DNA from: Candidatus Gastranaerophilales bacterium HUM_9
GTDB taxonomy: Bacteria > Cyanobacteriota > Vampirovibrionia > Gastranaerophilales > Gastranaerophilaceae
Direction: 5' to 3'
Length of the DNA stretch: 64,000 bases
Assembly (NCBI GenBank): GCA_002103075.1
Contig: DABG01000018.1
Span: forward strand, 400,836-464,835
The notes below the pieces were generated by a model, which saw only the letters and a program-made list of their open reading frames with translations, did no database searches and was not told the origin of the DNA. The number at the start of each line of letters is the position of its first letter. Position 1 is the stretch's first letter. The position numbers and the translations under genes were made by a program. Shown piece after piece: positions 3,393 through 19,942 of the stretch.

Positions 3393-3484
3393 AAACTTCT
3401 TTACAAAATGTCACAAACATGGCAATTTTCTTGCGTATATCGACTTAGTATATATATAATATATAAAATAACTAGGAGATTGCT

Positions 3485-4411
3485 ATGGCGATAACGCTTA
3501 ATACAGATGATTATCATTTAAAGACACAGTTGAATTTGTCGACATCTAGGTGGCAAGGCTATGCTGACAAATCTATTGATGAAGTTATTGAAGCGGAAGC
3601 AGAAAGCGGCAATACGCTTGCAAAAGATTATGGAAGAAAATTATTTGGAAGTGCTGATGAACTTATCAATACTTTCCAATTAAATGACCCAAGCAATAAG
3701 TACAATATTATTAACAAATTGTCAGCAGAGCAAAGAGAAAAAGTTCTTCAAATGCTTGATACTGATGATATGGTAGTAGGATTGAATTTCTTTACTCAAG
3801 ATAAACTACAAGAAATGCTTCAATACGCATCACCTGCTGAAAATATTAACGTTGCATTGGAAGCGTTCCCATTGCAAAAAATCATACAAATGATGCCTGA
3901 AGATGAACTTGAAGGATTTTTCATGAGTGATGATTTAAAAAAAGAAGTAATAACAGCTCAATTGAGAAACCTTGATCCTGAGTCATTAATCCAAATGACA
4001 GAGGGAATTACAGGGCAATCAGTTGACACAAACGACATCTCCAAAGTACTCAACCAACTAACTTCATTGCCTGATAAACAGTTCAAGGAAACAATGGCAA
4101 CACTTGACCCAGAGGTTCAACAAGCAATAATCTTACAGATGGCAAATGAAGATATGAGTGTAATGTCGAACTTTTCAACGGGTGCATATATTGATATGGT
4201 TAGCCAACAACAAAAACCAGACATGGTTAAATCAATGGTCGCTCTAAACCCTGAGTCATTGCAAATAATGACACGTGAACTACCAGATGATTTATTCTCA
4301 ATTGTTGCATCACAAATTGACACTAAACAGCTTGCTCAATTCCTTATCAATAAGTGTCCGCAAGTGTTAGAACAGTTTGTTTCGATGGGTAACGCTGGTT
4401 CTATTCATTAG
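3485..4411 (+). CDS. Hypothetical acidic helical-repeat protein (weak FliG/MgtE_N-like L-x-PE repeats)
   Basis: A 308-aa ORF with SD aggag upstream. It has repeated LDPE/LNPES...Q(I)M segments and no signal peptide. Its N-terminus MAITLNT is shared with the 19316..19801 gene. Confidence 0.6.
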   Translation: MAITLNTDDYHLKTQLNLSTSRWQGYADKSIDEVIEAEAESGNTLAKDYGRKLFGSADELINTFQLNDPSNKYNIINKLSAEQREKVLQMLDTDDMVVGLNFFTQDKLQEMLQYASPAENINVALEAFPLQKIIQMMPEDELEGFFMSDDLKKEVITAQLRNLDPESLIQMTEGITGQSVDTNDISKVLNQLTSLPDKQFKETMATLDPEVQQAIILQMANEDMSVMSNFSTGAYIDMVSQQQKPDMVKSMVALNPESLQIMTRELPDDLFSIVASQIDTKQLAQFLINKCPQVLEQFVSMGNAGSIH

Positions 4412-4901
4412 GCGTTGTTAAAAATTCTTTTAACATCTCTAAAGCACATTGTGTGAATTGATATTTCATCTTTTCACGTTTTAGCTTTGGATTCAGTCTG
4501 AATTCTTGAACAACTGCTTTGTAGTTTGATTTTATGGCAACATACATAAGACCTACTGGTTTGGTTGGTGTACCACCAGTTGGGCCTGCAATTCCTGTTG
4601 TGCAAACCACTATATCAGCATGTGTTTTTGCGTGTAATCCCAATGCCATTTCTGCGGCACATTCACGGCTAACAGCTCCGCAGTTTTCAAGTGTTTGGGT
4701 TGTAACACCTAATAGTGCGTGCTTAACTTCGTTTGAATATGTCACAAAGTTCAATTTTGTATATCTTGAACTGCCAGAAACATCTGTAAGACGAGAGCTT
4801 AAAAGTCCGCCTGTGCAAGATTCCGCAGTGGAAATTACTAGCGAATTATCGAATAATATTTGTGCTATTTCTTCTTCTATTTTTTTCTTTCTTCTAAACA
4901 T
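4401..4901 (-). CDS. pncC: CinA C-terminal domain / nicotinamide-nucleotide amidase PncC-like
   Basis: Hallmark motif AESCTGGLLSSRLTDVSGSS is present and the length is about 165 aa. Confidence 0.88.
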   Translation of the reverse strand: MFRRKKKIEEEIAQILFDNSLVISTAESCTGGLLSSRLTDVSGSSRYTKLNFVTYSNEVKHALLGVTTQTLENCGAVSRECAAEMALGLHAKTHADIVVCTTGIAGPTGGTPTKPVGLMYVAIKSNYKAVVQEFRLNPKLKREKMKYQFTQCALEMLKEFLTTPNE

Positions 4902-4984
4902 AACATCTATAATTTATTGCACATAAAAAGGTTTGTCAATAAACAATTTAGATGAGTTTATTGGGTAAAATTTTAGACAAATAG

Positions 4985-5017
4985 AAAAGGGGCGGAGCCT
5001 CTGGCTCCGCCCCTTTT
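4985..5017 (-). terminator. Rho-independent terminator downstream of the EF-hand gene
   Basis: An 11-bp GC stem ggggcggagcc/ggctccgcccc has a 3-nt loop and is flanked by A4 and T4 runs. Confidence 0.8.
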
Positions 5018-5028
5018 CAGTGTTTTAA

Positions 5029-5595
5029 TTATGAGTTACTATCATCATCATCTTGCAACCATTTATAAGATAAAAGACTTGATGATGAACTGTTGTTTGC
5101 ATTTTCATCACCATAGAATAATGATGTATGATTAATCATTCTATTTTGGTCTTTTGTTTTTTGGTTTTCTAGTTTTGATTGAAGTGTATAGCCTTGAACT
5201 TCTGCGTTACTTACGTAACCATCGTGGTTTGTGTCGATATCGTTGAAGTGGTCAAGGATAGTTGCTTGAGTTTCTGCTGAAATTCCACTCATGCTACCAA
5301 GTGATTGGATTTGAGCTCTTGTCATGCCTTGTGTAGAAAGTTGGTTCATAAGTGTTTGAACCTCGTCAGCAGATAGTGTGCCGTTTTTGTTTTTATCAAG
5401 TGAACTAAAGTTTTGACTTAAGTATGAAGCGAAAGTCGTTCCGTATTGGCTCGTTAATACAGAATTGTTTGACAATGCTTTTGTTAGATTTTTTTGTGTT
5501 AAGCCGTCTGAGTACAAATTTGAAAGTATAGCGTATGAATTTGCAACACCAGCGTTAACGCCTGTAAATAGTGATGAGCCACTAAGTTTTGACAT
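5029..5595 (-). CDS. EF-hand calcium-binding protein, lineage-specific
   Basis: Two canonical 12-residue EF loops are present, DKNKNGTLSADE and DTNHDGYVSNAE. There is no signal peptide. The N-terminus is MSKLSGSSLFTGVNAG. Confidence 0.7.
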   Translation of the reverse strand: MSKLSGSSLFTGVNAGVANSYAILSNLYSDGLTQKNLTKALSNNSVLTSQYGTTFASYLSQNFSSLDKNKNGTLSADEVQTLMNQLSTQGMTRAQIQSLGSMSGISAETQATILDHFNDIDTNHDGYVSNAEVQGYTLQSKLENQKTKDQNRMINHTSLFYGDENANNSSSSSLLSYKWLQDDDDSNS

Positions 5596-5749
5596 TTGGG
5601 GTAATCTCCTATAAATTCTCTCTAGTTGTTATACATTATTATTCTAATGATTTTTTAAAAGATTTCAACCATTCATTTGGATTATTTTTAGTGAAAAATA
5701 GATTTTTGACATAAGTAGACACTCTGTTATAGAATAATTGTGGAGGGAT

Positions 5750-6517
5750 ATGTTGGATAAACATTATACAACTGACGTGATAACGCTCAAGTCGTATGAC
5801 TTGAACGATGCAGATAAAATTTTAGTCATGTATTCAAAAGAAAAAGGTCTTATGCGTAGTGTTGCAAAAGGGATTAAACGACCTAAAAGTAAGCTGGGTT
5901 CAAGGCTTGATTTGTTGATGGCTAATAACTTACAACTTAGTCGTGGTAGGAATATGGACACTATTTGTCAGGCACAGACTATCAATAACTTTAAGGATAT
6001 AAGAGAGGATATTTCTAAACTTATGATTTCTTCTTATATATCTGAGATTGTGGCGAATTATGGAATGGAAAATGACCCAAGTTCTAATGAGGTTTATGAA
6101 CTTTTGTACAGAGCTATCGAAAACATTTCTAGGGCAGAAACTAAAGTTCAAATATTATTGGGTGCTTTAAAGTTTCAATTAAAGATGATGTATCTGACTG
6201 GGGTTATGCCTGAATTGAATTATTGTGTCGGGTGTAGAAAAGAATTAACTACACAGGATATGTATTTTTCTGTAGAAAAGGGTGGAGTATTTTGTTCTTG
6301 TTGTAATACGGTTTCTAACCATTCTGTTGAAATTCCTTATAAAGTGAGAGATTTTTTGTATACTTTACTTAATACGAATTTTGAAGATGAAAGTGAGTAT
6401 GAAAAGAAAGCTACTGAAAAGGTTTGTTTAGTGTGTTTTAATTTATTGAAGGATTATTTGACAAAACATTCATCAAAGAAATTTAAGTCTGATAAGATTT
6501 TAGCAAGTATTTTGTAA
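5750..6517 (+). CDS. recO: DNA repair protein RecO
   Basis: The N-terminal OB region (VITLKSYDLNDADKILVMYSKEKGLMRSVAKGIKRPKSKL) and the zinc motif CVGC...CSCC are present. The track ORF starts at a TTG at 5738; I prefer the ATG at 5750, just after GGAGG. Confidence 0.85.
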   Translation: MLDKHYTTDVITLKSYDLNDADKILVMYSKEKGLMRSVAKGIKRPKSKLGSRLDLLMANNLQLSRGRNMDTICQAQTINNFKDIREDISKLMISSYISEIVANYGMENDPSSNEVYELLYRAIENISRAETKVQILLGALKFQLKMMYLTGVMPELNYCVGCRKELTTQDMYFSVEKGGVFCSCCNTVSNHSVEIPYKVRDFLYTLLNTNFEDESEYEKKATEKVCLVCFNLLKDYLTKHSSKKFKSDKILASIL

Positions 6518-6608
6518 TTTTTACAAATATTTATGGTTTAAAAACAAAATGCCCTATTTATATAGGACATTTTTTTAATGTTTATAAACAAATCTTAAAT
6601 AAAATTTG

Positions 6609-6851
6609 TTATTTTAATTTTACTGTTACTGAACGAATTTTCTTAGTATATTCAATTTTGTCTTCTCTTGACAACCAACCAAGACCCATTTCAGCAAAGT
6701 TTTCATATAAGTTCAAATCTTTTTTTAGCTTAGAGATAGATACTTCACCTTTGTCTGACAAATAGTTGTAAATCATACCTGCTGCGTTAATGATTTCTTG
6801 TTGAATGTTAGCATCAGCTGCTAATGTTGCTTTTTTCTTTAATAGTGCCAT
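6609..6851 (-). CDS. Small winged-helix protein (DUF2582-like)
   Basis: An 80-aa ORF with the pattern IYNYLSDKGEVSISKLKKDL...MGLGWLSREDKI, typical of this small wHTH family. This rests on recollection, not a search. Confidence 0.5.
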   Translation of the reverse strand: MALLKKKATLAADANIQQEIINAAGMIYNYLSDKGEVSISKLKKDLNLYENFAEMGLGWLSREDKIEYTKKIRSVTVKLK

Positions 6852-6928
6852 ATTAACTAACTCCTTTTCTTGATTACATATATATATTATTTTAAAAATT
6901 TAATTTATGCAATATAATATTAATTAAT

Positions 6929-9900
6929 ATGATAATAAATAAAATTTCTGATAAAAATAACGTAAAAATTATAACAAAGCAATATCTGGAATGGCTTGAT
7001 ATGGGTGCTATTTCGTCTGAGATATTAGTGTTAAGTTTTAATTCAAATTCTAAAAAAAATATTGAAAAAAATATACTAAAATTAACAAAAAAAAATCTAT
7101 TATCAGAATTTAAAATTCATACTTTTAACGGTTTAATTTATAACACAATTTTGGATAATTGGAGCAAGTTAGAAGATTTGCTAGATAAAGAAGATTGTAT
7201 AATTTCACCTAATCTTGTAGGACTTGAAGTTTCACAGCTTCTGTTTAAGCAGATTATTCAGGAACAAGTGGTTAAGGGTTATAATTCTAAAAAATCCTTG
7301 TTGCAACAGATTTTTAGACGTTATTCTTTAATTGTAAATAATCACCTTTCCCCAACAGAAATTAAACATAAATCAGAAATTTTGCACGAAGCATTTGGAG
7401 AAGATGCAAATAATATTATCAATCTTTATAAGTCGAAAACTATTGATTTGAGAAGTTTTGATTATATTAGACAGGCTCAAATTTTTGGATATATTTATAA
7501 AAATACTGAGTATTTTAAAAATATTAAATATTTAATAATTGAAGATGGCGATGAAGTGACGCCATTGTTAATAGATTTTGTAAAATTGATTGCTAAGCAA
7601 TTGAAAGATAGCTTAATTTTGTTAGATGTAAATGGCGGAAGTCGTTGTGGATATTTGTGTGCAGACCTTGAGGCACCACAAAAGTTTGAGAAAATTTTTA
7701 AAGAAAAAATTCAAAATTATGATGATAAATTTGTTGATAAAACTATTTGGGAAAATGTTTTTTCTGAAACAAAAACTCCGATAAAAAATATTAAGAATTT
7801 TTCTGCTTCAAAACGTCTAGATATGATTGATGAAGTTATCCAGAAAATTATTAAATTGTTGAATAAAAATGTAAAACCGTCTGACATTGCAATTATTACA
7901 CCTATTCAAGATAGTATGCTAAAGTGTCTTTTGCAAGAGGGATTGAATAATTATGATTTAAAATTTTTATCGGGTAATGAAAAACTCGTTCAGAACCCTT
8001 TGGTTAAATCGATTTTGGTTATGCTTAAACTTGTTCAAGGTAAACCTGTTGACGAATATGAATTAAGACTTGTACTTTCAAATTCTTTAAAAATTCCAAT
8101 AAGATATTGTGAAAATATTTTGAAAACATTTGGAAAAACAGGCGAACTTAGGGAATATGAGATAGGAAGTTATACTGAAAAATATGAACAGCTCTGTAAA
8201 GTTGTTGAATTCTTACGTGGTTCAAAATATAAACTATCTAAAAAAGCAAGCTATATTTATGAAAATTTGATTGAATCAGTTGATGAACAAGAATTGAAAA
8301 AGTTTTCGTTTTTTGTAAAAGAATTGCAGGATTTTGAAAAAACTTTTGCAAATAATTATGATGAAAAAGTTGAAGATGAAATTATTGTACAATTAGAAAA
8401 TACTGTTATTGCAGAAAATCCTTATTCTGTATTAGAAATCAAAGATAGTGAAATAATAGTTTCTACTCCACAAAAAATTATTGATAATAAAATTACAACT
8501 AAATATCAGTTTTGGCTAGATATATCTTCTGGTGAGTGGCAAAAAATGGATATTGGTCCATTATATAATTCGTGGGTGTTCCAAAAGAATTGGACAAAAG
8601 ATGAGTATACGGTTGAGGATAATATTAAGTTCACTAACGAAAAAACTGCAAGGTTTTTGTGGAAACTTTATCATAACGCTAAAAAAATTGTTGTTTGTTC
8701 AAGTTTGTTTGATACACAAGGAGTTGAAAACCTTGGTGGAATTGAAAAATTTGTTGTTGTGGAAACAGAAGTTCCAAAAGAAAAGCCTAAACAATTTAAA
8801 ATTATACCACGTGACGACCAAAAACCAGTACTTGAGTATAAATCAGGCAAAATGGCGATTTCAGCAGTTCCTGGGGCGGGAAAAACTACTATTTTGTTAG
8901 CGTTGATTGTGAAACTTTTGAAGCGTGGTATAAAACCAGAGAATATTTATGTAATGACTTATATGGAATCTGCTGCCAGAAATTTTAAAGAACGTATCAA
9001 AGCACTTTATCCGTCTTCTTCTAAGTTGCCCAATATTAGTACTATTCATGGACTTGCGTTGAGGATTATTAAAGAAAATTCGAATTATGAACGTATTGGA
9101 TTAAACCCTGATTTTGAGATTTGTGACGATATCCAGCGAGGGAGAATAATAAAATTTTTATCCAAAAACCTTAAAAAAGAAGATGTGGACGACTTTGATA
9201 GAGCAGTGTCTGTGCTAAAACTATGTGGTGCTAATTTGAACTATAAACAAAATCCGGAGATGGCACGTATTATGGGATTAAAGCGTGGCACGGTTGAAGA
9301 AGCTAAAATGGCTAGATTTTTGAAGTTTTTCTATGCTTACCAAAGAACACTGATTTCTCAAGGGTTGATTGATTATGATGATATTTTGATTTCTGCGGTT
9401 AGGTTGCTCGAACAAAATCCTGATGTACTTGAATATTATCAGAATATCTGTGAATACATGATTGAAGATGAGGCTCAAGATTCTTCGTTTATTCAACAAA
9501 AGTTGATAAATATGCTTTGTGCAAAACATAACAATTTAATAAGATGCGGGGATATCAATCAAGCGATTACAACGACTTTTACCAATGCAGATATATCTGG
9601 ATTTAAACAGTTTATTGATGAGTCACAAAAGGTTAGTATGAATTGCTCTCAACGTTGTAGTGAGGGTGTTTGGAAACTTGCAAATTCGCTTGTTGATGTA
9701 GGGGAAAGACTGCTTCCAAATGCATTTTATAAAATATATATGAATCCTGTTGAGGGTAGAAATCCGGAAGAGAAAAAGCCTATTGTATCAGAGTTTTATA
9801 ATAATGGTATTGATGAAAAAATTAAGGTCGTTAATACGATTAAGACGTTGTTTAGACAAAATCCTAAAAGTACTGTTGGGGTTTTGTTGAGAAATAATTA

Positions 9901-10789
9901 TCAGGTTAATGCGTGGGCAAAGTATATTAATGATTCTGGTTTGAATGCGATTACAAGAAATGAGTGTTTGGCTCAAAAAAATATTTTTAAAGTGATTTAT
10001 TCTATTTTGAAACTTGTTGCAAATCCTTTTGATAACGAGATTGTGGCGAATGCGTATGAGAATATGGCAGAGGCTGGGATTTTGAAGTTTGGCAAGAAAG
10101 AATATATTACAGCTTTTATGGGTAGTTTTTTAGCTCAAAATAACGATATTATTGAAGATAAAGAGTTGAGTAAATTTCATTGGGATATGAACTATTGGTT
10201 GTCATTTACAGAGTTGACAATTGATGAGTTGGCTTTGAAAATTGGCTTGAATTATTTTTCAGGAAATATTGAAAAGTCTAATATATTCTTGATTTCAACT
10301 TTGATTGCAAAGATTAATAATGGGAATTTTAAACAAACGCTTGATAGGCTCAATGATTTATCCTCAAAACCTAATTTGAGTGGGTTTAAATTCTTTACTC
10401 CAGAAGATGAGAACCAAGAAAGTTATGGAAAAGTTCAAATTATGACCTTGCATAAGTCTAAGGGTGATGAGTTTGACTATGTGTTCTTGCCAGAGATGAG
10501 CGAAAAGAATCTTACACTCGATATTGATGAATTGTCATTGAAGAAATCATCAGGGTTTATGGAGAATGTAAGAGGTTTGAAAGCTGGGTATAAGAAAAAG
10601 AGTGAATATGAGCAAAAGCAAGATATTATTGCTGAAGATTTTAGATTGTTGTATGTTGCAATTACTCGAGCAAAAAGACGTTTGTATATATCAGTGGCAA
10701 AGAAAGATAAACATTTTGGGCGTATGCAAACGGTTGTGCCGAGCATAATTTTTGACGAATTGTTAGGAAAATATCCTCTAAATAGTTGA
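6929..10789 (+). CDS. UvrD/Rep/AddA-superfamily helicase with an N-terminal degenerate second helicase module
   Basis: The C-terminal half has Walker A AVPGAGKTT (about aa 649), IEDEAQD (motif II), HKSKGDEFDYVF and LLYVAITRAKRRLYIS. The N-terminal roughly 640 aa has UvrD-like motif remnants (ILVLSFN, IHTFNG, LIIEDGDE) but no P-loop. Confidence 0.85.
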   Translation: MIINKISDKNNVKIITKQYLEWLDMGAISSEILVLSFNSNSKKNIEKNILKLTKKNLLSEFKIHTFNGLIYNTILDNWSKLEDLLDKEDCIISPNLVGLEVSQLLFKQIIQEQVVKGYNSKKSLLQQIFRRYSLIVNNHLSPTEIKHKSEILHEAFGEDANNIINLYKSKTIDLRSFDYIRQAQIFGYIYKNTEYFKNIKYLIIEDGDEVTPLLIDFVKLIAKQLKDSLILLDVNGGSRCGYLCADLEAPQKFEKIFKEKIQNYDDKFVDKTIWENVFSETKTPIKNIKNFSASKRLDMIDEVIQKIIKLLNKNVKPSDIAIITPIQDSMLKCLLQEGLNNYDLKFLSGNEKLVQNPLVKSILVMLKLVQGKPVDEYELRLVLSNSLKIPIRYCENILKTFGKTGELREYEIGSYTEKYEQLCKVVEFLRGSKYKLSKKASYIYENLIESVDEQELKKFSFFVKELQDFEKTFANNYDEKVEDEIIVQLENTVIAENPYSVLEIKDSEIIVSTPQKIIDNKITTKYQFWLDISSGEWQKMDIGPLYNSWVFQKNWTKDEYTVEDNIKFTNEKTARFLWKLYHNAKKIVVCSSLFDTQGVENLGGIEKFVVVETEVPKEKPKQFKIIPRDDQKPVLEYKSGKMAISAVPGAGKTTILLALIVKLLKRGIKPENIYVMTYMESAARNFKERIKALYPSSSKLPNISTIHGLALRIIKENSNYERIGLNPDFEICDDIQRGRIIKFLSKNLKKEDVDDFDRAVSVLKLCGANLNYKQNPEMARIMGLKRGTVEEAKMARFLKFFYAYQRTLISQGLIDYDDILISAVRLLEQNPDVLEYYQNICEYMIEDEAQDSSFIQQKLINMLCAKHNNLIRCGDINQAITTTFTNADISGFKQFIDESQKVSMNCSQRCSEGVWKLANSLVDVGERLLPNAFYKIYMNPVEGRNPEEKKPIVSEFYNNGIDEKIKVVNTIKTLFRQNPKSTVGVLLRNNYQVNAWAKYINDSGLNAITRNECLAQKNIFKVIYSILKLVANPFDNEIVANAYENMAEAGILKFGKKEYITAFMGSFLAQNNDIIEDKELSKFHWDMNYWLSFTELTIDELALKIGLNYFSGNIEKSNIFLISTLIAKINNGNFKQTLDRLNDLSSKPNLSGFKFFTPEDENQESYGKVQIMTLHKSKGDEFDYVFLPEMSEKNLTLDIDELSLKKSSGFMENVRGLKAGYKKKSEYEQKQDIIAEDFRLLYVAITRAKRRLYISVAKKDKHFGRMQTVVPSIIFDELLGKYPLNS

Positions 10790-10938
10790 AATATTGAGGG
10801 TAAAATCACAAATATGTTTGAAAAATAATAATGATATGTTAATATAAGTACGTTAGAGTAGATAATATAAGGAGAAAAGCCATAGCACCGGAAGATAGAA
10901 GGTTTGGAAACAGACGAGATAATAAAGATAAAGCAATA

Positions 10939-11430
10939 ATGAATGAAAGAATTCGTTCAGCAGAAGTAAGACTAATTGACCAAAACGGAGATAATCACGG
11001 TGTGGTTGCGACTTCAAAAGCGTTAGCGATGGCAGAAGACGCAGATATGGACTTGGTTTTAATAAGCCCTAACCAAGAACCTCCTGTAGCAAAAATATTG
11101 AACTACGGTAAATATAAATACGAGTTGGAAAAGAAAGCAAAAGAAGCTAAGAAAAAACAACATACCGTAGATGTAAAAGAAGTAAAAGTAAGATATAAGA
11201 TTGATACTCACGATTATCAAGTTAGAATTAAGAATATCAATAAATTTATTGCACAAGGCAATAAGGTAAAGATTGTTGTAATGTTACGTGGTAGAGAAAT
11301 GCAACATTCAAACTTAGCATTTGATTTGGCTAACAAGTTTATGGAAGACTTGGTGGGTGATACGATTGCTGTTGAAAAGAAACCACAATTAGAAGGCAGA
11401 AACGTAACATTGTTCTTAGCTCCAGTATAA
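10939..11430 (+). CDS. infC: Translation initiation factor IF-3 (the true start is probably a non-AUG codon at 10882)
   Basis: NERIRSAEVRLIDQNG, PPVAKILNYGKYKYE and the C-domain KEVKVRYKIDTHDYQVR are present. The frame is open upstream to 10843, with aaggag at 10869..10874 followed 7 nt later by ATA. Confidence 0.92.
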   Translation: MNERIRSAEVRLIDQNGDNHGVVATSKALAMAEDADMDLVLISPNQEPPVAKILNYGKYKYELEKKAKEAKKKQHTVDVKEVKVRYKIDTHDYQVRIKNINKFIAQGNKVKIVVMLRGREMQHSNLAFDLANKFMEDLVGDTIAVEKKPQLEGRNVTLFLAPV

Positions 11431-11444
11431 AAATAAAAAAGTTA

Positions 11445-11472
11445 TTGACTAAAAATCTTTATACGGTAGAAT
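11445..11472 (+). promoter_or_regulatory. Candidate sigma70-type promoter (TTGACT-16 nt-TAGAAT) upstream of the tRNA-Phe region
   Basis: A -35 TTGACT lies at 11445..11450 and a -10 TAGAAT at 11467..11472. This is sequence match only. Confidence 0.4.
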
Positions 11473-11513
11473 AGACATACAGGGTTGAGAAAGAAGTTTT
11501 TCGGCCGTGTCTG

Positions 11514-11668
11514 AAAATGACAATTAAATATAGAATAAATAATGTGTGCCGCAATAGCTCCCCAGTGAAGCGAAGCGGAACGAAAAGGAAAAATAGTAGA
11601 GCAAGGCTCTACCAACGTTTCCAAAATGACAATTAAATATAAACAAATAATGTGTGCCGCAATAGCTC
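11514..11668 (+). repeat. Direct duplication of the tRNA-Phe upstream region plus the first 13 nt of the tRNA, enclosing a scrambled pseudo-tRNA fragment
   Basis: Copies at 11514..11560 and 11623..11668 are near-identical (aaaatgacaattaaatata..aataatgtgtgccgcaatagctc). The interior contains tagagcaagg (tRNA-like) and its inverted partner ctctaccaac. Confidence 0.8.
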
Positions 11669-11731
11669 AGTTGGTAGAGCAAGGGACTGAAAATCCCTGT
11701 GTCCTTGGTTCAATTCCGAGTTGCGGCACCA
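11656..11731 (+). tRNA. tRNA-Phe (anticodon GAA), CCA encoded
   Basis: Manual cloverleaf: acceptor GCCGCAA/TTGCGGC, D arm GCTC..GAGC, anticodon stem AGGGA/TCCCT with loop CTGAAAA, T arm CTTGG TTCAATT CCGAG, and 3' ACCA. Confidence 0.93.
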
Positions 11732-11747
11732 TTTTTGTTTGTATAAT

Positions 11748-11922
11748 GTCATTCATAGGGAGTGCAACGACCGAAGAATCCCCTTGAACATGTATAGCAC
11801 GTCATTACGAGGAACGGAGTGACGTGGTAATCCAGAAAAAGTTTTTTTATGTACGCAGAACTATTGGTTTATAGATTGCCACACTTAATACATTGCATAC
11901 CGTTAAATTGCTTGTAATGATG
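11748..11922. repeat. Mosaic extragenic palindromic repeat cluster B
   Basis: Contains gtcattcatagggagtgcaacgaccgaagaatcccc and the long unit cgtcattacgaggaacggagtgacgtggtaatccagaaaaag...tatagattgccacacttaatacattgcataccg. Confidence 0.85.
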
Positions 11923-12018
11923 TATTAAACTCACCCACAAAAACGAAGAAAGGCCACATCATCTCGACGTGAGCCCCTCTTACCATATTTAACAACGAAA
12001 AAGAAATTTTTATATTTA

Positions 12019-13848
12019 CTAGCCACCGAACGTTTTGAAACTTGATTCAACGTTTTTACTAACAACTTTCTGACAAGCTTCCATTTCTGTTTGAAGTGCA
12101 GATTGTTCAGTATTTAATTGTTCAAGTCTTAATTGAAGCTGTCTATCTTCTGCCTGAATAATTTCAGTTTTTGCGTTAATTCTTGCAACTTCGTTATCGT
12201 ACTGTTCTTGTTTGTAACGATATTGGTTCATTGCATTGTTATACGCATCTTCATCAGTAATAGCTTCACAGTTCAATGTATATACTACGCTATCATCTTC
12301 AAATTTGATTGATTTGAAACGACCTGTGCCATCTGTTTCACATAATGCGTTCTTAACCTCTTCAACTTTTGTTTTGATGTATGAAGCGTTATAGTATTTA
12401 AGTTTGAATTGTCCATCAATACCGTTTTCTGCGATATTGTTTTTGTCAGCACCTTCACAAGCCTTTGATAAATCATCGGTAGTTGTGTAGTATGTTGTGC
12501 CATTCATTTGGAATTTATAAATCCCACCTAAATATTCGCCAGTATCAGGGTCAAAACACTTAGACAAGTTTGCATAAGCCTGTGGATCATTAGCTTTCAT
12601 ATCCTTAAGTACTTGTTCAAGCTCTGTTTTCATGTTCTTTTGATCAGCATCTGTCCAGTCATCTGGCAAGATTTCTGTCAAATTGCAGTTACCAACTGAT
12701 GTGTAGTTTGAATATGTAGGGTTGTTTTCTGCTGAATGTAAGAACAATTTATCCTTAACGTCAGCTGGATTATCTGGGTTTAATACTAAATTAGAAATTT
12801 CTTTAGCAGATAAGTAGCTTGTGCCATCTGTATAGTATACATTTGTATCACCACTTCTTACGGTTGCTGTAGCAACATCGCCTTGAGCGTTTGCTGTCTT
12901 ATCCATTTCATTTCCGCTTATGAATACATAATTACCGTCATCAAGTTTTGTTGCATAATATGTATCATTGATATCAAAATTTGCACCATAACTTTGTGTA
13001 ATAAGGTTCTTAAGTGCTGGGTTGTTGTCTAAATCAACTTCTGAGAATGCTGTTCCAGCTGCAACAGTTTTTTCAATAAAACGTGGGTTATCTGCTGCAT
13101 CTTCTGCTTTTGTATCGTCAAAATCAGGGTTTGGAACTTTAACTTTTACATCTTGAGCAAATGCCCATTGATTTGTTGTAGCAGCTGCACCACCAGCATT
13201 ATCAACCCAAGAACTTGTACCACCGTCCCAAGTTTTTGGTATGGCACCAGCTTTTGTGAAGTTTGCACGTGCTCCACTTGCTGTTTGTGTTGTTCTTGAA
13301 TAGATTGCATCTAGTGCATCTACTTGATCTGGATCAGATGTTGCATCAACTCTTCGGAATGTCTTAGTTGATTCAACACCGTTTCTCAACATTGTAAATG
13401 TGTAAGTGTCATCACCAGCACCAGTCTTAGACTCTTGCTTGTAGTCCACATTAAGAATTTGATACTCTGTATCAGGTTTGTTCGTAAAGTGGTTTGTCTT
13501 AAGTGCTTGAACTTGAGGATCGTTAAGTTTTTTCGCAGAACCTGTGTATACGTCCTCATAGTGATAACTTGTTACAACATAGTTGTAATCTTCTTGTGGT
13601 GTACCTAGCCTGTAAAAATCTGAAACTACAGAATTATTGATGCCATCACTCCAAGAATATTGAAGAGTGGTGTAATCTGTGCTGTCAGGACAAGTTGGTA
13701 CAGACATCGTCAACATCTGATTAAATAAATCAGCTGATTGGTTTGACAAGTTTAACCTTTGTTGGTTTAACTGTTGGCCTTCATATTCGGTATTTGTCTT
13801 TCTGGCAGACAAAGCCAAATATCGAGCCTGCGTAGCTGCCATACCCAT
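12019..13848 (-). CDS. Lineage-specific 609-aa protein with helical Q/N-rich termini and a long variable central region
   Basis: A strong SD (aaggag 6 nt before the ATG) precedes it. The N-terminus is MGMAATQARYLALSARKTNTEYEGQQLNQQRLNLSN and the C-terminus has heptad-like text EDRQLQLRLEQLNTEQSALQTEME. I recognise no family. Confidence 0.75.
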   Translation of the reverse strand: MGMAATQARYLALSARKTNTEYEGQQLNQQRLNLSNQSADLFNQMLTMSVPTCPDSTDYTTLQYSWSDGINNSVVSDFYRLGTPQEDYNYVVTSYHYEDVYTGSAKKLNDPQVQALKTNHFTNKPDTEYQILNVDYKQESKTGAGDDTYTFTMLRNGVESTKTFRRVDATSDPDQVDALDAIYSRTTQTASGARANFTKAGAIPKTWDGGTSSWVDNAGGAAATTNQWAFAQDVKVKVPNPDFDDTKAEDAADNPRFIEKTVAAGTAFSEVDLDNNPALKNLITQSYGANFDINDTYYATKLDDGNYVFISGNEMDKTANAQGDVATATVRSGDTNVYYTDGTSYLSAKEISNLVLNPDNPADVKDKLFLHSAENNPTYSNYTSVGNCNLTEILPDDWTDADQKNMKTELEQVLKDMKANDPQAYANLSKCFDPDTGEYLGGIYKFQMNGTTYYTTTDDLSKACEGADKNNIAENGIDGQFKLKYYNASYIKTKVEEVKNALCETDGTGRFKSIKFEDDSVVYTLNCEAITDEDAYNNAMNQYRYKQEQYDNEVARINAKTEIIQAEDRQLQLRLEQLNTEQSALQTEMEACQKVVSKNVESSFKTFGG

Positions 13849-14093
13849 AGGCTTCTCCTTTCGTTGTTAATATGTGTTAAATATGTTTTTTCATGGTTTC
13901 TTTTAATGCTACTTTTTTATTTTTCAATTTTTTATTACATAGCACTACTATTATGTTACATTTCTTAACATTTCTTTTCAACGGTTATAGATTTGTATTC
14001 TATACAAATGTATAAAGGATTTCATACTAAAGTATGAGAGATTAGGGGTTGTTGATGATTTTTGGTGATTTTGTCGTGTACGCATTAAATACG

Positions 14094-14813
14094 CTATCTC
14101 AAAAGCATTTCAATAGTAGATGCAGCAAACACAGCCATCTTTGTTTCAACCTGAGCCAAAGACATAGGGGCAGAGCCATCTGCCAAGTCTGAAATTGCTC
14201 TTATTATCATACAAGGTACCCCATTTTTGTTTGCGGTTTGGGCAATTGCTCCACCCTCCATTTCAACAGCAGTCGCATTGAATAATTCTAAGAGTTCACG
14301 TTTTTTTTCAGATGATGATACAAAAGTGTCACCTGTTGCAATAACTCCCTTATGTACAGTTATATCTGTTGAGTTTAAAGTTTTCATAGTTATTTCAAAA
14401 TCATTAATCAAATTCTTATCAGAATAAAATAATGTTGGTTTATTAGGTTCAATCCCTGTACACATATATCCTTTTGCATATCCGAGTGCCGTAGCATCAA
14501 AATCATGTTGAACTAAGGTCTCGCCAATAACGATGTCGCCAACCCTTAAGTTAGCATCTATTCCACCTGCAACACCTGTATTAATAATACAATCAGGTTC
14601 AAACTTATCTATAATATACTGAGTATTCAAAGCTGCGTTGACCTTGCCAACTCCGCTTTTTGCAAGGATAACTTCGTGGTTGTTTATCTTGCCTGTATAA
14701 ATAGTTAAGTCATGATAATCGTCTTTTTTTAAGTCCTGCATAATCGCTTGAAGTTTTTCAACCTCACAGTCCATAGCACCAATGATTGCGTATCGTTTAA
14801 TTCTATTCGGCAT
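14094..14813 (-). CDS. mtnN: 5'-methylthioadenosine/S-adenosylhomocysteine nucleosidase
   Basis: IIGAMDCEVE, SGVGKVNAA and VEMEGGAIAQ motifs are present. It overlaps the luxS stop by 11 nt. Confidence 0.92.
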   Translation of the reverse strand: MPNRIKRYAIIGAMDCEVEKLQAIMQDLKKDDYHDLTIYTGKINNHEVILAKSGVGKVNAALNTQYIIDKFEPDCIINTGVAGGIDANLRVGDIVIGETLVQHDFDATALGYAKGYMCTGIEPNKPTLFYSDKNLINDFEITMKTLNSTDITVHKGVIATGDTFVSSSEKKRELLELFNATAVEMEGGAIAQTANKNGVPCMIIRAISDLADGSAPMSLAQVETKMAVFAASTIEMLLR

Positions 14814-15264
14814 AATACATCTTATCCTCGTTCCAATCTTTCAAAACTTCAAGCATATCAACTGCTATAGCCTTAGCACCATCAAGGTCGTGTTCAAGAT
14901 AGTTCCCGCATTCTTCTTTGTTTGTTCCAGGAATTTTACCCTCAAAATCTTTTATAAATGCCAAAGACTCTTTTAATATATTAAGTGCCTGAGTATGAGT
15001 AATTGAATCTCTAACCAAGAAATAGAACCCTGTACGGCAGCCCATTGGACCAATATAAACAATCTTGTCCTGAAATTCTGTGTTCCTTGCATACGTTGCG
15101 AACAAGTGTTCAAATGTGTGCATTGCACCGTTTGACAAAAAATCGTTCATATTAGGACGTTTCATTCTGATATCATAAGTTACAATATCGCCATCTATTC
15201 TTGAAATATACATACCTTTTTGTAAAGTATCGTGGTTAATTTTAAAACTTTCTATCTTTTCCAT
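14803..15264 (-). CDS. luxS: S-ribosylhomocysteine lyase LuxS
   Basis: The HTFEHLFA (HxxEH) metal motif and GPMGCRTGFY are present. Length is 153 aa. Confidence 0.93.
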   Translation of the reverse strand: MEKIESFKINHDTLQKGMYISRIDGDIVTYDIRMKRPNMNDFLSNGAMHTFEHLFATYARNTEFQDKIVYIGPMGCRTGFYFLVRDSITHTQALNILKESLAFIKDFEGKIPGTNKEECGNYLEHDLDGAKAIAVDMLEVLKDWNEDKMYYAE

Positions 15265-15310
15265 AATTTTCTCTTTTCATTGTGTCTATATATTATTAAT
15301 TATAAATGAA

Positions 15311-15447
15311 AAAAGTTTATATGTACGCAGAAATAATATATTTAATTTGTAGTACGTAATGCGCCATTATGTATTCGCAGGGATTCTTCGCTTCGCTCTG
15401 AATGACGATTGAGGTATGCAGTATAGTAAGTTCGGAATAACGTCACT
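15311..15447. repeat. Mosaic extragenic palindromic repeat cluster C (degenerate)
   Basis: Contains aaaaagtttatatgtacgcagaa, cgcagggattcttcgcttcgctctgaatgac and gtaagttcggaataacgtcac, all related to modules seen elsewhere. Confidence 0.7.
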
Positions 15448-15451
15448 ATTC

Positions 15452-15700
15452 CTATTCTTCGTCATTATTAGCGTCGTTTTCGTCACTTGCTAGTTCAAGC
15501 ATTCTATAAACCATATAAGCACCTAGTGCTACAGCTTTGGGGTCTAAATCAGTATTTTTAGCTGCCTCTAAAATAGAAGTATTAACCTCTGGGTTTTCTT
15601 CTTTAATATAATGAATCATATTTTTACGCCATTGGTGAACATCTTGAAATGCCTCTGCAAATACTAATGATGATTGTTCTTCTGTAATTAATGGCAACAT
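15452..15700 (-). CDS. Hypothetical small acidic protein
   Basis: An 82-aa ORF with a plausible SD (aggag). No recognisable motif. Confidence 0.5.
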   Translation of the reverse strand: MLPLITEEQSSLVFAEAFQDVHQWRKNMIHYIKEENPEVNTSILEAAKNTDLDPKAVALGAYMVYRMLELASDENDANNDEE

Positions 15701-15806
15701 ACAATTCTCCTATTTTTCTTAATTATATATAAAAATATTTACTTTTCAAAAAATGTTAAGTTTGTTAATTTAATGAAATCTGAAAAAATTTCAGTATAAT
15801 TATAGT

Positions 15807-16457
15807 ATGAAGAAGTTTTGGGTGATATTATTAATAACAATGTTGGCATTACCTGTTTTTGCAAGTAAAAAAGAGGCACAACCAAACATTCCATCACAAA
15901 CTTTTATGAACCAAAAAGGTTATGAGGGTTCTTTGCCTGATATTATTGATAAATTTCAGCCATCAAAGCCTGCAAGTGCAACACCAGTATTTGAAGCAGA
16001 AGAGGGTTTTGATGACCCTGACAAACTTAAGCCAACTCCTCGTGACAACCCAGCATTTGTAAACATAATCCTTAAAAAAGACAAAACCTCAACATACATA
16101 TATGATATAAATAAAATTATCTTACTTGTTGAAGCTCTAATCGATTGTATTGAAAACGAAGAAAACGTACAGCTGTTCGTTGCAAAAGCTACAAATTTAG
16201 AATTTGCAATTGGTGGACTACGTGATAGTTTTGAGGGTAAACCGGAAAGTTATTATACTTCTTATGTAAAATTGATGTCACTTTGTATGCATGTAAAAGC
16301 TATGGCAGAACTAAGAAGAGAGGGTGCAGAGTACAATAAATATCTTGCATATCAAGCAGCAGGCTCTGTTTTTGCACCGGACAATGTAAACAAAGAGCTT
16401 CACTACCTGCTTGATGAACTTCAAGAGGTACTTGTTATCCTAAGAGAAGTTGAGTAA
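15807..16457 (+). CDS. Hypothetical secreted protein (Sec signal peptide)
   Basis: The N-terminus MKKFWVILLITMLALPVFASKKE is a classical signal peptide. No family is recognised. Confidence 0.65.
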   Translation: MKKFWVILLITMLALPVFASKKEAQPNIPSQTFMNQKGYEGSLPDIIDKFQPSKPASATPVFEAEEGFDDPDKLKPTPRDNPAFVNIILKKDKTSTYIYDINKIILLVEALIDCIENEENVQLFVAKATNLEFAIGGLRDSFEGKPESYYTSYVKLMSLCMHVKAMAELRREGAEYNKYLAYQAAGSVFAPDNVNKELHYLLDELQEVLVILREVE

Positions 16458-16484
16458 ATTTTTTGTATGATAAGATTATTATCA

Positions 16485-16508
16485 GGGTTCAATAATTTTA
16501 TTGAACCC
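16485..16508. terminator. Bidirectional hairpin terminator between convergent genes
   Basis: Stem gggttcaat/attgaaccc with a 6-nt loop in an AT-rich context. Confidence 0.55.
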
Positions 16509-16522
16509 CGATAAAATTATTA

Positions 16523-17545
16523 TTATTTTCCAAATAATCCCATTTCAATAACTTTTTTACAAAGTCTTACGGTGTTTAAAGCTGCACCAATTCTTAAGTT
16601 ATCAGCCACGCACCATAAAGAGATACCGTTTTTGAATGCAAGGTTTTTTCTTACCCTACCAACAAATACAGGGTCAACGTTTTCAGCATCTCTTGTAGTT
16701 GGATATACATAATTTTCAGGGTCGTCCATAACCTCTACCCCAAAAGTATTTGATAAAATTTCTCTCACTTCATCAGGAGTAATTTCTTCTTCAAACTCGA
16801 TATCAACAGCTTCTGAGTGACCAGTAAATACAGGAACTCTAACTGCTGTACAAGAAATTGGCGTTTCTTCTGCTAAGTGAAGAATTTTCTTTGTTTCATT
16901 AACAACTTTTAATTCTTCTTTTGTATAACCGTTTTCATCAAACACGTCAATCTGAGGAATAACGTTGAAAGAAATAGGTTTTTTAAATACTTCGTTCTTA
17001 AATTCTTTGCCATTCAAATAAGCGTCAACATCTTGTTTTAATTCATCAATACCATTTTTGCCAGCACCGCTAACAGCTTGGTATGTAGAAACAATCAAGC
17101 GTTTAATTTTTGCTCGTTCATTTAGCGGTTTCAAAACCAACATCAATTGTGATGTAGAACAGTTTGGATTAGCAACAATACCTTTATGGTTCTTTAAGTC
17201 CTCGTCATTAACAGATGCAATAACTAACGGTACGTCTTTTTCCATTCTAAAGGCACTAGAGTTATCAATAATAACTCCGCCACGTTTTACAATTTCAGGA
17301 GCAAATTTTTTACTTGTTCCGCCACCAGCAGATGCAAGAACAATATCTACACCATCAAATGAATCAGGGGTTGCTTCTTCAACTGTATATTTTTTACCTT
17401 GAAACTCAAGTTCTGTACCTGCACTTTTTGCACTTGATAAAAATTTAATTGTTTCAAATTCTACGTTCAATTCAGTAATGATTTCTGAAATTTTTCTACC
17501 TACAACACCTGTTGCACCTAAAATTGCAAGATTTGGTTTTCTCAT
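16523..17545 (-). CDS. asd: Aspartate-semialdehyde dehydrogenase
   Basis: ILGATGVVG (NADP fold), the active-site region ANPNCSTSQL, and YQAVSGAG are present. Confidence 0.95.
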   Translation of the reverse strand: MRKPNLAILGATGVVGRKISEIITELNVEFETIKFLSSAKSAGTELEFQGKKYTVEEATPDSFDGVDIVLASAGGGTSKKFAPEIVKRGGVIIDNSSAFRMEKDVPLVIASVNDEDLKNHKGIVANPNCSTSQLMLVLKPLNERAKIKRLIVSTYQAVSGAGKNGIDELKQDVDAYLNGKEFKNEVFKKPISFNVIPQIDVFDENGYTKEELKVVNETKKILHLAEETPISCTAVRVPVFTGHSEAVDIEFEEEITPDEVREILSNTFGVEVMDDPENYVYPTTRDAENVDPVFVGRVRKNLAFKNGISLWCVADNLRIGAALNTVRLCKKVIEMGLFGK

Positions 17546-17585
17546 CTTTTTACCTTTCCTTGTCCTACATTCTAATTATTTTATA

Positions 17586-18332
17586 TTACATTATATTATC
17601 TAAGCCATACACAAAGTTTTTGTTCTCAACTGCGTATCTAGTTGCAAGAAGAACACCTGCCATATAGCATTCACGGTTCATAGAGTCGTGTCTTATTGTC
17701 AAAATTTGTCCAGATGCACCTAGTATAACCTCTTGTGATGCAATATATCCAGGCATTCTAACTGAATGAATATGAATATTGTTATATGAATTTGCACCTC
17801 TAGCACCTTTTATTGTTTCTGTTTCAGGGCAGTTGCCTTTTGTGAAATCATTATTGTTTTCAGCCATCATTGCAGCTGTTTTTACAGCTGTACCTGATGG
17901 AGCGTCTTTCTTTTGGTTATGGTGAAGTTCAATGATTTCTGCATTATCAAAATATTTTGCCGCCATCTTTGAAAACATCATCATCAAAACAGCACCTGTT
18001 GAAAAATTAGGTGCAATAAAACAAGCTGTTTTATTAGCTTCTGACATTTGTTTAAGTTCTTCTATTTGTTCGTCTTTTAAACCAGTTGTGCCGATTACAA
18101 TATTTATTTTGTTAGACAAACAGTATTTTGCATTATTATATATTGAGTTTGGTTGAGTAAAGTCAATTAAAACGTCGATTTTTTTTGAGTTATGAGCTTC
18201 TTCGATTGTTGTGAATTCACCCTCAAAAATATCAATCTTGGCAACAAGTTCCATATCTTCTGCATTGTTTACTGCATTAACAACTTCTTTACCCATTTTC
18301 CCGTTTGCACCACATACTGCAACTTTTATCAT
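17586..18332 (-). CDS. dapB: 4-hydroxy-tetrahydrodipicolinate reductase
   Basis: VAVCGANGKMG is present along with the signature ELHHNQKKDAPSGTA. Confidence 0.95.
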   Translation of the reverse strand: MIKVAVCGANGKMGKEVVNAVNNAEDMELVAKIDIFEGEFTTIEEAHNSKKIDVLIDFTQPNSIYNNAKYCLSNKINIVIGTTGLKDEQIEELKQMSEANKTACFIAPNFSTGAVLMMMFSKMAAKYFDNAEIIELHHNQKKDAPSGTAVKTAAMMAENNNDFTKGNCPETETIKGARGANSYNNIHIHSVRMPGYIASQEVILGASGQILTIRHDSMNRECYMAGVLLATRYAVENKNFVYGLDNIM

Positions 18333-18472
18333 AATAGCCTCTTTTCTTTTTATAAATTTAATTGCTACAAGTATTACACAATTAATAAGAAAAATAAAGC
18401 CTTAATTTATAGACAATTAGGGGAAGAAATTTAACCTTAAAAACTAATAATAAAAATAAAAAAGGAGAAAAT

Positions 18473-18703
18473 ATGATAGAACTATTTATGTTGGATTATT
18501 GCGGATATTGTCAAAAGGTTATGGAATACTTGAATATTCACAAAATACCCTACAAAAAGATTGACATATCTGATAAAGCAAACGAAGAAGCTCTAATAAG
18601 AATTGGTGGCAAACGTCAAGTACCTTTTATTGTAGATAAAGAACACGGAATAGAAATGTATGAGTCTAAAGTTATTATTGAATATTTAAAAACTTTGAAA
18701 TAA
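18473..18703 (+). CDS. Glutaredoxin-like (NrdH/Grx) small redox protein
   Basis: A 76-aa ORF with a CGYC active site and the RQVPFIV cis-Pro region. Confidence 0.8.
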   Translation: MIELFMLDYCGYCQKVMEYLNIHKIPYKKIDISDKANEEALIRIGGKRQVPFIVDKEHGIEMYESKVIIEYLKTLK

Positions 18704-18743
18704 AGTTGGTATTTTCTATCAAATTTTTATTATTACTTACAAA

Positions 18744-19310
18744 TTAGTTTTTGTAAAATCCTGATGTGTAATAATCAAAACCTTTGAGCTCACCAGATTT
18801 TTTGTAAACAGGTGTAAATGCAACTTTGAATACTCTATCACTGCATTTTTTGTCTGCCAACTCAACAGATTTGTCATAATATCTGTTCACAGCATTAATT
18901 GTTTCAAAAGAGTTTGGGTATCCTGTTCTTTCAATGCTTTCACGCTTTGCTTTTCCGATTGCCTTACCATAGTTTTCGTCAATAAACTTTGCGTCCTTAC
19001 CTGTAATCACACGGATAAATCCCTCACAGCTATTTTTTGCCTTTTTATAAACAGCTCTTATTTTAGGAATATTAAAATAGTCAACATCTCCGCCAACTCT
19101 TTTTCCAGTAGCGTCAATTTGACCATATTTGAATGTGTCAACCAAGTCCATATTGCGTTTTTTTACACGTTTAGAGTTGTTCAAATGTGCTTCAACATAG
19201 TGAAGACATTTTTTCATGTTTTCGTCAGAAACAATACGTCTGCCATCATTCGTATAAAAATACATTTTATACGAGCTATTAAAAGATTGGTTGTCGCCTG
19301 ATATACGCAT
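18744..19310 (-). CDS. Hypothetical lysine-rich protein with MRIS N-terminus
   Basis: A 188-aa ORF beginning 5 nt after the stop of the upstream gene. Its start ATGCGTAT is shared at nucleotide level with the 2081-aa and 602-aa genes. There is no signal peptide. Confidence 0.6.
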   Translation of the reverse strand: MRISGDNQSFNSSYKMYFYTNDGRRIVSDENMKKCLHYVEAHLNNSKRVKKRNMDLVDTFKYGQIDATGKRVGGDVDYFNIPKIRAVYKKAKNSCEGFIRVITGKDAKFIDENYGKAIGKAKRESIERTGYPNSFETINAVNRYYDKSVELADKKCSDRVFKVAFTPVYKKSGELKGFDYYTSGFYKN

Positions 19311-19315
19311 AATTT

Positions 19316-19801
19316 TTATTCGTTATGACCTGTTTGCCAACGGTGGTCGATATCAGCTTTTTTAGCGTTTGCATTCAAGTTTGCTATGAATAAATGATAT
19401 GCCATAACTGTTAAACCAACGGCACCTGCAATAACTTTACCCTTTGTTGAAATAGCTTTTGGTGCTTTTTTAACGACATTTCTTATTGCATCAACACCAA
19501 TTACGCCTACAGCTCCAATTCCGCCATAAGCTAAGCCCTTAAATGTGCCTTTGATGTACTCTCCAGTGGTAACTATTGCTTTTTTAAAGTTTGTATACCC
19601 GTTTTTAAATCTTTGCCATAAAGATTTTTTCTTTTGTGGTTCTTCTGTTGTTTTGTTTTGCACTACGACTTCATCGCTTGCAGGCTCTGTTTTTGTTTCT
19701 GGTTGAACATTTCCTGTAAATGTCGGAGCTTGAGTAACTCTTGATGCGTTACTACGCATTGTGTCAAAAACGTTGTTTTGGGTATTTAATGTTACTGCCA
19801 T
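19316..19801 (-). CDS. Hypothetical membrane protein with MAVTLNT N-terminus
   Basis: Two predicted TM segments (GLAYGGIGAVGVIGVDAI, VIAGAVGLTVMAYHLFIANL). I prefer the ATG at 19801 (AGGTGA 5 nt upstream) over the GTG at 19810 used in the track. Confidence 0.6.
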   Translation of the reverse strand: MAVTLNTQNNVFDTMRSNASRVTQAPTFTGNVQPETKTEPASDEVVVQNKTTEEPQKKKSLWQRFKNGYTNFKKAIVTTGEYIKGTFKGLAYGGIGAVGVIGVDAIRNVVKKAPKAISTKGKVIAGAVGLTVMAYHLFIANLNANAKKADIDHRWQTGHNE

Positions 19802-19942
19802 ATACATCACCTATTTCACTACACACTTACTTAAAAACATGAAACTACAATTATTTGCTAGTTTTTAACAAAATTTTACAATAAATGAAGCAAAATTTTC
19901 TTATATGTTACAATATATTATAAGAAAATTTTAGGAGAAAAG

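Follow-up and report, generated by a model that had tools for sequence, protein, structure and literature searches.

Some non-motile bacteria, e.g., Buchnera, retain flagellar basal bodies as protein exporters. The export signal most comparable to the element studied here is that of the early flagellar (rod and hook) substrates of Salmonella, which combine an N-terminal small-hydrophobic signal with a gate recognition motif of the form F-x-x-x-hydrophobic that docks at FlhB-C (PMC8983047). In Salmonella FlgD these signals are 2-SIAV-5 and 36-FLTLL-40. The spacing between the two signals is at least 19 residues, with an optimum of 24-30, and export depends on the FlhB/FlhA gate (PMC8983047). 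We analyzed a window of 64,000 nucleotides (contig C19:400836-464835, taken as a whole) from Candidatus Gastranaerophilales bacterium HUM_9, whose assembly comprises 1.86 Mb with 32% GC. The window carries two genes, hereafter A and B, whose products begin with the near-identical heptapeptides MAITLNT and MAVTLNT. The Gastranaerophilales are an order of non-photosynthetic cyanobacteria.

Our analysis shows that the heptapeptide of B is the first module of an order-wide two-part leader, carried by a predicted disordered region of around 60 residues that precedes a membrane hairpin. The heptapeptide of A opens a conserved element of fixed length, which precedes helix 1 in an acidic helical-repeat protein of soluble type. 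Judged from the sequences, what has been conserved is a loose pattern resembling flagellin starts, not the exact heptapeptide, and the identity over seven residues is probably a recent convergence within the genus, with no fixed signal string. The original prediction, made from the letters of the window, regarded MA[IV]TLNT as a distinct second N-terminal signal. This idea found no support, since the string dissolves within the genus in both families. The combined reading, i.e., a convergent start, a leader that serves as an export signal in B, and a structural or partner-binding element in A, has in our view an even chance of being correct.

Start codons, conservation, and chance

Both strings are present where the original prediction had placed them, at 3485 and 19801 (Table 1). 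The frame of B (19316-19810, -) offers three candidate starts: GTG 19810, ATG 19807, and ATG 19801. The first two lie inside AGGTGA, which is the sole Shine-Dalgarno-like string of the gene. The orthologue of B in genome G006 (MSVTLNTQNT) has a stop codon just ahead of the ATG that aligns with 19801, at a distance of two codons. This ATG and an AGGTG-type Shine-Dalgarno are kept genus-wide, and the upstream GTG/ATG codons are not. The public gene calls for the family have 161 amino acids (aa), with N-termini MAVTLNT, MTVTLNT, or MAVSMNT. The stop in G006, the genus-wide conservation, and the public calls together settle the predicted start of B at ATG 19801, as had been proposed, and the objection that translation may begin at the upstream GTG (19810) falls away. 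It had also been noticed that the two proteins are otherwise unrelated, which agrees with a BLASTP alignment limited to residues 1-9. Since the codons differ at four of the five identical residues other than Met (GCG/GCA, ACG/ACA, CTT/TTA, ACA/ACC), the likeness between A and B is at the protein level and does not stem from a common DNA segment.

The proteome of this genome (labelled G000, with contigs C6, C14, C17, C19, and C20) was taken as 1772 proteins and around 530,000 residues. The match is beyond chance or within it according to how the comparison is framed. The expected number of other N-termini matching the string of A equally well is 0.0035, and the hexapeptide is found twice right after Met and once at an internal position (post hoc P ~1e-5). 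When the N-terminal columns were shuffled over the 1772 proteins, two to three pairs as good as A and B arose per proteome, so the claim that such a match is unlikely by chance is not supported at this level. The real proteome also contains several unrelated pairs with 5/6 identities, e.g., MPINTDY/MPINTDK and MISSVVS/MISSVFS. With two to three chance pairs expected proteome-wide, identity alone is weak evidence, and the weight must come from conservation and context. A putative third example from the six-frame translation, (I)AITLNT at C17:8494, has no Shine-Dalgarno and no ATG, GTG, or TTG start (the codon is an ATT after a stop) and was taken as a chance occurrence.

We searched the DNA of 151 genomes of the order for M[AST][IVM][TS][LF]NT, where [IVM] was used because the RTN codon also reads ATG, and found 13 matches. 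There was no DNA-level excess of this pattern in the 151 genomes, as the reversed-pattern control matched more often. Eight of the 13 matches open long reading frames, the other five being in short frames or at internal positions. The eight frames correspond to A, B, four members of a 155-aa family, a 496-aa protein starting with MAISFNTIVSG, and a 392-aa protein starting with MAISLNTIKN. The 155-aa family belongs to another genus and has no homology to B. In its N-termini (MSVSLNTITFTG, MSISLNTANITFTG) the F box, the second part of the leader described below, follows immediately. Further families in other genera start with M[ST][VI]S[LF]NT, the 155-aa family being one of them. In all, no fewer than three additional, unrelated protein families of the order begin with M[AST][IV][TS][LF]NT, which provides the further examples that the original prediction had proposed to search for.

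The same prediction had pointed to a resemblance to flagellin N-termini, and this holds against the flagellins of the order itself (MS[IL][VT][VI]NNN). The 12 flagellins of flagellated relatives start with MS[IL][VT][VI]NNN[IV]ASLIAQRNL (MSIVVNNNIASL) and fit, like A and B, the loose pattern M-x-[IVL]-x-[IVLF]-[ND]-x-[NDQ]. Defined independently of A and B, these N-termini served as a template for the leader's first module. When all 1772 N-termini were scored against it, A ranked 20th and B 31st (top 2%). The top of the ranking is rich in F-box proteins, e.g., MSSPVNNNIN...VSFQES and MFEEINNNIT...VAFKG. With the D0 start of flagellins (M-x-x-x-I-N-T-N type), A (MAITLNTDDYHL, family MSIVIDTDLTTL) and B (MAVTLNTQNNVF) share the layout hydrophobic-x-hydrophobic-N-x-N/D, but the likeness is limited to around 8-12 residues and neither protein has a flagellin domain.

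These matches might be a pure coincidence, in which the start of A would be a structural strand followed by a helix cap, that of B a disordered tail, and their likeness a reflection of an AT-rich genome with an abundance of I, N, T, and S at its N-termini. The chance pairs of the shuffled columns, the unrelated pairs of the real proteome, and the reversed-pattern control fit such an explanation, as does the universal PheT start MKVSLNWL, which also matches the loose pattern. However, the N-termini of A and B are conserved well above neighbouring positions, the hexapeptide is found much more often at position 2 than at internal sites, and the same start is found on further unrelated F-box families. 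Moreover, flagellin-like starts are 2-8 times commoner at N-termini than in windows opened by an internal Met. We find coincidence unlikely, while granting it some weight.

Conservation in orthologues, on which the link was said to depend, is observed for each of the two N-termini within its own family. It could in principle result from translation initiation or N-terminal processing instead of a protein signal, e.g., a second residue small enough for Met to be removed, or an mRNA that begins unstructured and A/T-rich. Position 2 is indeed always small (A, S, T, P, G, or V) in both families and the codons are A/T-rich. Yet the conserved positions are 3, 5, 6, and 8, not 2 and 4, and synonymous codons vary freely, both between A and B and among orthologues, from which it follows that selection acts on the residues. 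An origin in initiation or processing is thus highly improbable. More generally, these data call for caution in taking short exact N-terminal matches as signals, since the pattern is conserved and the string is not.

The two-part leader of protein B

The leader consists of an M-x-[IVL] start, a polar, acid-poor spacer without a hydrophobic core, and a [STNP]-F-[KGT]-[GAS] box (the F box) within 60 residues. B has all of these features, together with predicted disorder and conservation among orthologues. Around 30-40 proteins of the genome have a non-hydrophobic start rich in N, S, T, and Q that ends in [STNP]F[KGT][GAS]. They include B and the MRIN proteins of the window, but not A. The link that had been drawn to the MRIN group is thus borne out for B, which falls in the same wider leader class. 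The consensus of the class start is nearer to M-[NRK]-I-[NS]-x-I-[NS]-N than to MA[IV]TLNT.

Distribution counts were made over 61 genomes of the order, and the B family is found in 38 of them. The protein is basic (isoelectric point, pI, of 9.9) and ends in a conserved DHRWQTGHN. Its orthologues start with M[ATSV][VI][TS][LFM]x and, in most of the close ones, the box follows a polar stretch as PTFTG, PSFT[AS], PSFAS, PSFKA, VNFSA, or LTFTS. In the AlphaFold2 model, residues 1-60 are disordered and are followed by a helical hairpin of low confidence (Table 1).

Neither protein has a Sec, Tat, or lipoprotein signal peptide, which would show a hydrophobic core of 10-15 residues behind a basic n-region, the maximal hydropathy over 12 residues within the first 40 being -0.1 for A and 0.3 for B. 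A type IV prepilin leader, with a G/F-T-L-I-E cleavage site and then a hydrophobic helix, is also absent from B: its F box leads into polar residues (TFTG-NVQPETK), and ahead of residue 87 there is no hydrophobic stretch. No relevant description of a leader in Gastranaerophilales came up in a search of the literature.

The gene that follows B encodes a 188-aa product (MRISGDNQSFNS) with a short leader of the same class. This pair of genes is kept in relatives of the genus, where the downstream products begin with MNSGMSVNNAPNF, MQIQANQQSFN, or MNISGNNNTSFG. Neither B nor the 188-aa protein has a Pfam match, and A, B, and the 188-aa neighbour have no match in PHROGs or PADLOC. A scan of NCBIfam gave only noise, including holin_lambda with E = 0.08 for B. 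The region upstream of B (~19830-19900, -) contains a conserved block, TTGTAAAATTTTGTTAA ... TAGCAAAT, which includes a GCAA[AT]T element also found in the block upstream of A.

Table 1. Positions of genes A and B and of their features in the window (strand in the third column).
Feature	Position	Strand	Description
Shine-Dalgarno of gene A	3474-3478	+	AGGAG, 6 nucleotides before ATG
Gene A	3485-4411	+	308 aa, N-terminus MAITLNTDDY from ATG at 3485
A residues 1-7	3485-3505	+	MAITLNT, low-confidence tail ahead of helix 1 in the AlphaFold2 model
188-aa gene (MRIS gene)	18744-19310	-	starts 5 nucleotides after the stop of B
Gene B	19316-19801	-	161 aa, N-terminus MAVTLNTQNN from ATG at 19801
B residues 87-142	19376-19543	-	hydrophobic Gly/Ala-rich segments ~87-110 and ~122-142, predicted helical hairpin
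B residues 1-60	19622-19801	-	predicted disordered, most with predicted local distance difference test (pLDDT) <50; leader, acidic/Pro-rich linker, Lys patch
B residues 27-30	19712-19723	-	TFTG, the F box, second leader module
B residues 1-7	19781-19801	-	MAVTLNT, first module of the two-part leader
Shine-Dalgarno of gene B	19812-19807	-	AGGTGA, 5 nucleotides upstream of ATG 19801

The conserved start of protein A

Protein A is encoded by a single-copy gene present in 59 of the 61 genomes of the order and rare in the class outside it. It is an acidic (pI 4.3), all-helical repeat protein without a hydrophobic segment. Its AlphaFold2 model has confident helical repeats (mean pLDDT of 81.8), with residues 1-7 below 50 and helix 1 spanning residues 7-15. 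The Pfam profile MgtE_N (PF03448) matches residues 57-119 with 28.4 bits, which is borderline given the curated cut-off of 25.9 bits. The comparison with FliG_M gave only E = 0.4, and A has no FliG_N/M/C domain match. A shares with the MgtE_N/FliG superfamily the paired-helix repeats and this borderline match, but lacks the transporter part of MgtE. A fold search of the PDB with the model and a profile search of PDB sequences found no usable relative, so that A could not be called FliG-, MgtE-, or gatekeeper-like on structural grounds. Profile comparison likewise revealed no relation between A and the weakly FliG_M-like gene in the FliE-FlhA cluster (see below).

We compared 30 orthologues to define the conservation pattern of the N-terminus of A. 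Within the genus it reads M[ASTP]I[TAS]LNTD[DQ]Y[HY]L, with M[TS]ISLNTDQY as consensus, and at the level of the family MSIVIDTDLTTL (consensus MSIVIDTDL), MIVLDTDL, MIQLDVDL, and similar sequences. Column scores show that I3, [LIV]5, [ND]6, [DN]8, and L12 are conserved, while positions 2, 4, and 9 are free. The N-terminus is in a fixed register with a conserved block, LNIS..[KR]M..Y..S[IV]DEI[IV].AEA..GN. In structural terms, residues 3 and 5 would be of alternating buried type and followed by an N/D-x-D cap into helix 1. Because of the acidic residues, the fixed register, and the immediate helix, we consider it rather likely that the element is a structural or partner-binding piece, distinct from the signal of B.

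Upstream of A (~3400-3470, +) lies a conserved block, GCAATTTTT ... TACTTA-TATATATATAATATATA, with its own GCAA[AT]T element. A sigma-54-like reading of TGGCAATTTTCTTGC, upstream of the same gene, was rejected since its spacing varies among orthologues.

An export gate without flagellin

No match to flagellin (PF00669) was found anywhere in the genome, nor in the Pfam scan of A and B. This flagellin-less genome has one cluster with FliE, FliF, the weak FliG_M-like gene, FliH, and FlhA, and also encodes FlhB (C6:203072-204133) and FliP. The genes beside FliP read as candidate FliQ-, FliR-, and FliO-like genes, and the 211-aa gene directly downstream of FlhB (C6:202402-203037) reads as a candidate sigma factor, possibly a FliA-type regulator. 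Two Pfam rod matches (Flg_bb_rod) were read as FlgB- and FlgC-like, and two open reading frames adjoining these rod genes read as candidate FlgF/G-like genes.

Across the 61 genomes we identified two full-length FlhA paralogues. The first, with scores of ~870 bits, tracks flagellin and is present in 36 of the 61 genomes (with one assembly gap); this paralogue and flagellin are both absent from the whole genus of the window. The second, with ~720 bits (C14:13182-15257 in G000), is found in all 61 genomes, flagellin-less genera included. This split between a universal and a flagellin-linked paralogue points to the likely machine. As in the basal bodies of the Buchnera type, gate, MS-ring, and rod genes are present here without flagellin. 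In contrast to these, the retained set is built on a separate FlhA paralogue, which in flagellated relatives occurs side by side with a complete flagellar set.

An export signal in B is plausible given these sequences. By analogy with the early flagellar substrates, the B-type leader may direct proteins to the flagellin-independent type III gate kept by the flagellin-less genus, a tentative reading that we place somewhat below an even chance. Docking at the gate would be the task of the F box, and the hydrophobic extreme N-terminus would engage the gate afterwards. Small hydrophobic residues are found within positions 2-7 of both proteins (A2, I3, and L5 in A; A2, V3, and L5 in B). B shares with the early flagellar dual signal an N-terminal AVTL (residues 2-5) and a predicted disordered uncharged spacer; the F28-TGN-V32 that follows would fit the F-x-x-x-hydrophobic form, but the box consensus of its class is a different one. 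The 22 residues between AVTL and F28 exceed the minimum of 19. The leader class differs from the dual signal in the consensus of its box, [STNP]-F-[KT]-[GA], and in its spacing: in many leaders the F box lies 2-8 residues from the start (MNNVSFTG, MISNVSFGS, MIQPVSFTG, MSVSLNTITFTG). Its carriers are, in addition, non-axial proteins. Since the leaders, taken as a class, do not keep to the spacing and differ in their box consensus, we treat the leader as working like the dual signal at best, and not as a member of it.

Several of our results weigh against the combined reading: besides the pairs produced by column shuffling and the boxes placed close to the start, the F box is missing from part of the B family, including some members of the genus. 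A strict position matrix built from the F-box proteins of the genome ranks MAITLNT 829th and MAVTLNT 1508th, which argues against a tight motif. The matrix was dropped as a membership test, its training set being small and dominated by N and S. Given the rank of B, the membership of this protein in the class rests on its architecture and not on the heptapeptide. Finally, A may yet prove to be a substrate or to bind the gate, a gate-related role that its free tail and flagellin-like pattern would allow.

Alternatively, MA[IV]TLNT may be one form of a single N-terminal export signal, with A and B both being exported by the retained flagellar-type apparatus. This would agree with the high rank of both starts for flagellin likeness, with the modelling of residues 1-7 of A as a free tail, with the coincidence of its conserved positions (I3, [LIV]5, [ND]6, [DN]8, [LIY]9, L12) with the flagellin pattern, and with the presence of an export gate without flagellin. 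However, the only feature of the leader found in A is the M-x-[IVL] start: the protein has neither polar spacer nor F box, and Asp occupies positions 8-9 (6 and 8 in most orthologues outside the genus), whereas leaders are acid-poor. Its fixed-length element leads, with a helix from residue 7, straight into the conserved folded domain, with no substrate-like disorder past this residue. F54 and F64 of A lie in helices with Asp at +4, and the gate recognition motif is absent. We thus regard a signal shared by A and B, as originally predicted, as doubtful. We are equally sceptical of a broader version, in which M-x-[IV]-x-[LIV]-N-x-[ND] starts would mimic flagellin and be read by a second type III export apparatus, independent of flagellin, in every Gastranaerophilales genome, B being an exported hairpin protein of translocator layout and A an exported or gate-docking, gatekeeper-like regulator.

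Should the leader prove to be an export tag, it would identify the proteins carried by a secretion route not yet described, in a gut lineage that is widespread and uncultured. This route would use a gate of flagellar origin, retained after the flagellum or together with it.

A few other features of the genome deserve mention. FliE (C14:9302-9649), a true early type III substrate, starts with MTFGFNG and has GDFKAVF around 40 residues further on, the same two-part layout as the leader. A third class of FlhA hits, with a copy in most genomes of the order, is represented in G000 by a 485-aa soluble protein (C20:97498-98955) made of an unrelated N-terminal part and the C-terminal domain of FlhA (FHIPEP 324-655). 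The genome also encodes around 20 paralogues of 226-1132 aa that start with MG[ML][SA][SA]SQ[AV]R[LY]L.LT.R. One of them is in the window (12019-13848, -) and two (C14:2235-3881 and C14:5490-5834) adjoin the FliE-FliF-FliH-FlhA cluster. The former of these two, with 548 aa, was the only member scanned against Pfam and had no match; it has a coiled-coil-like C-terminal tail. From their sequences, these paralogues could be filament-like cargo of the retained gate.

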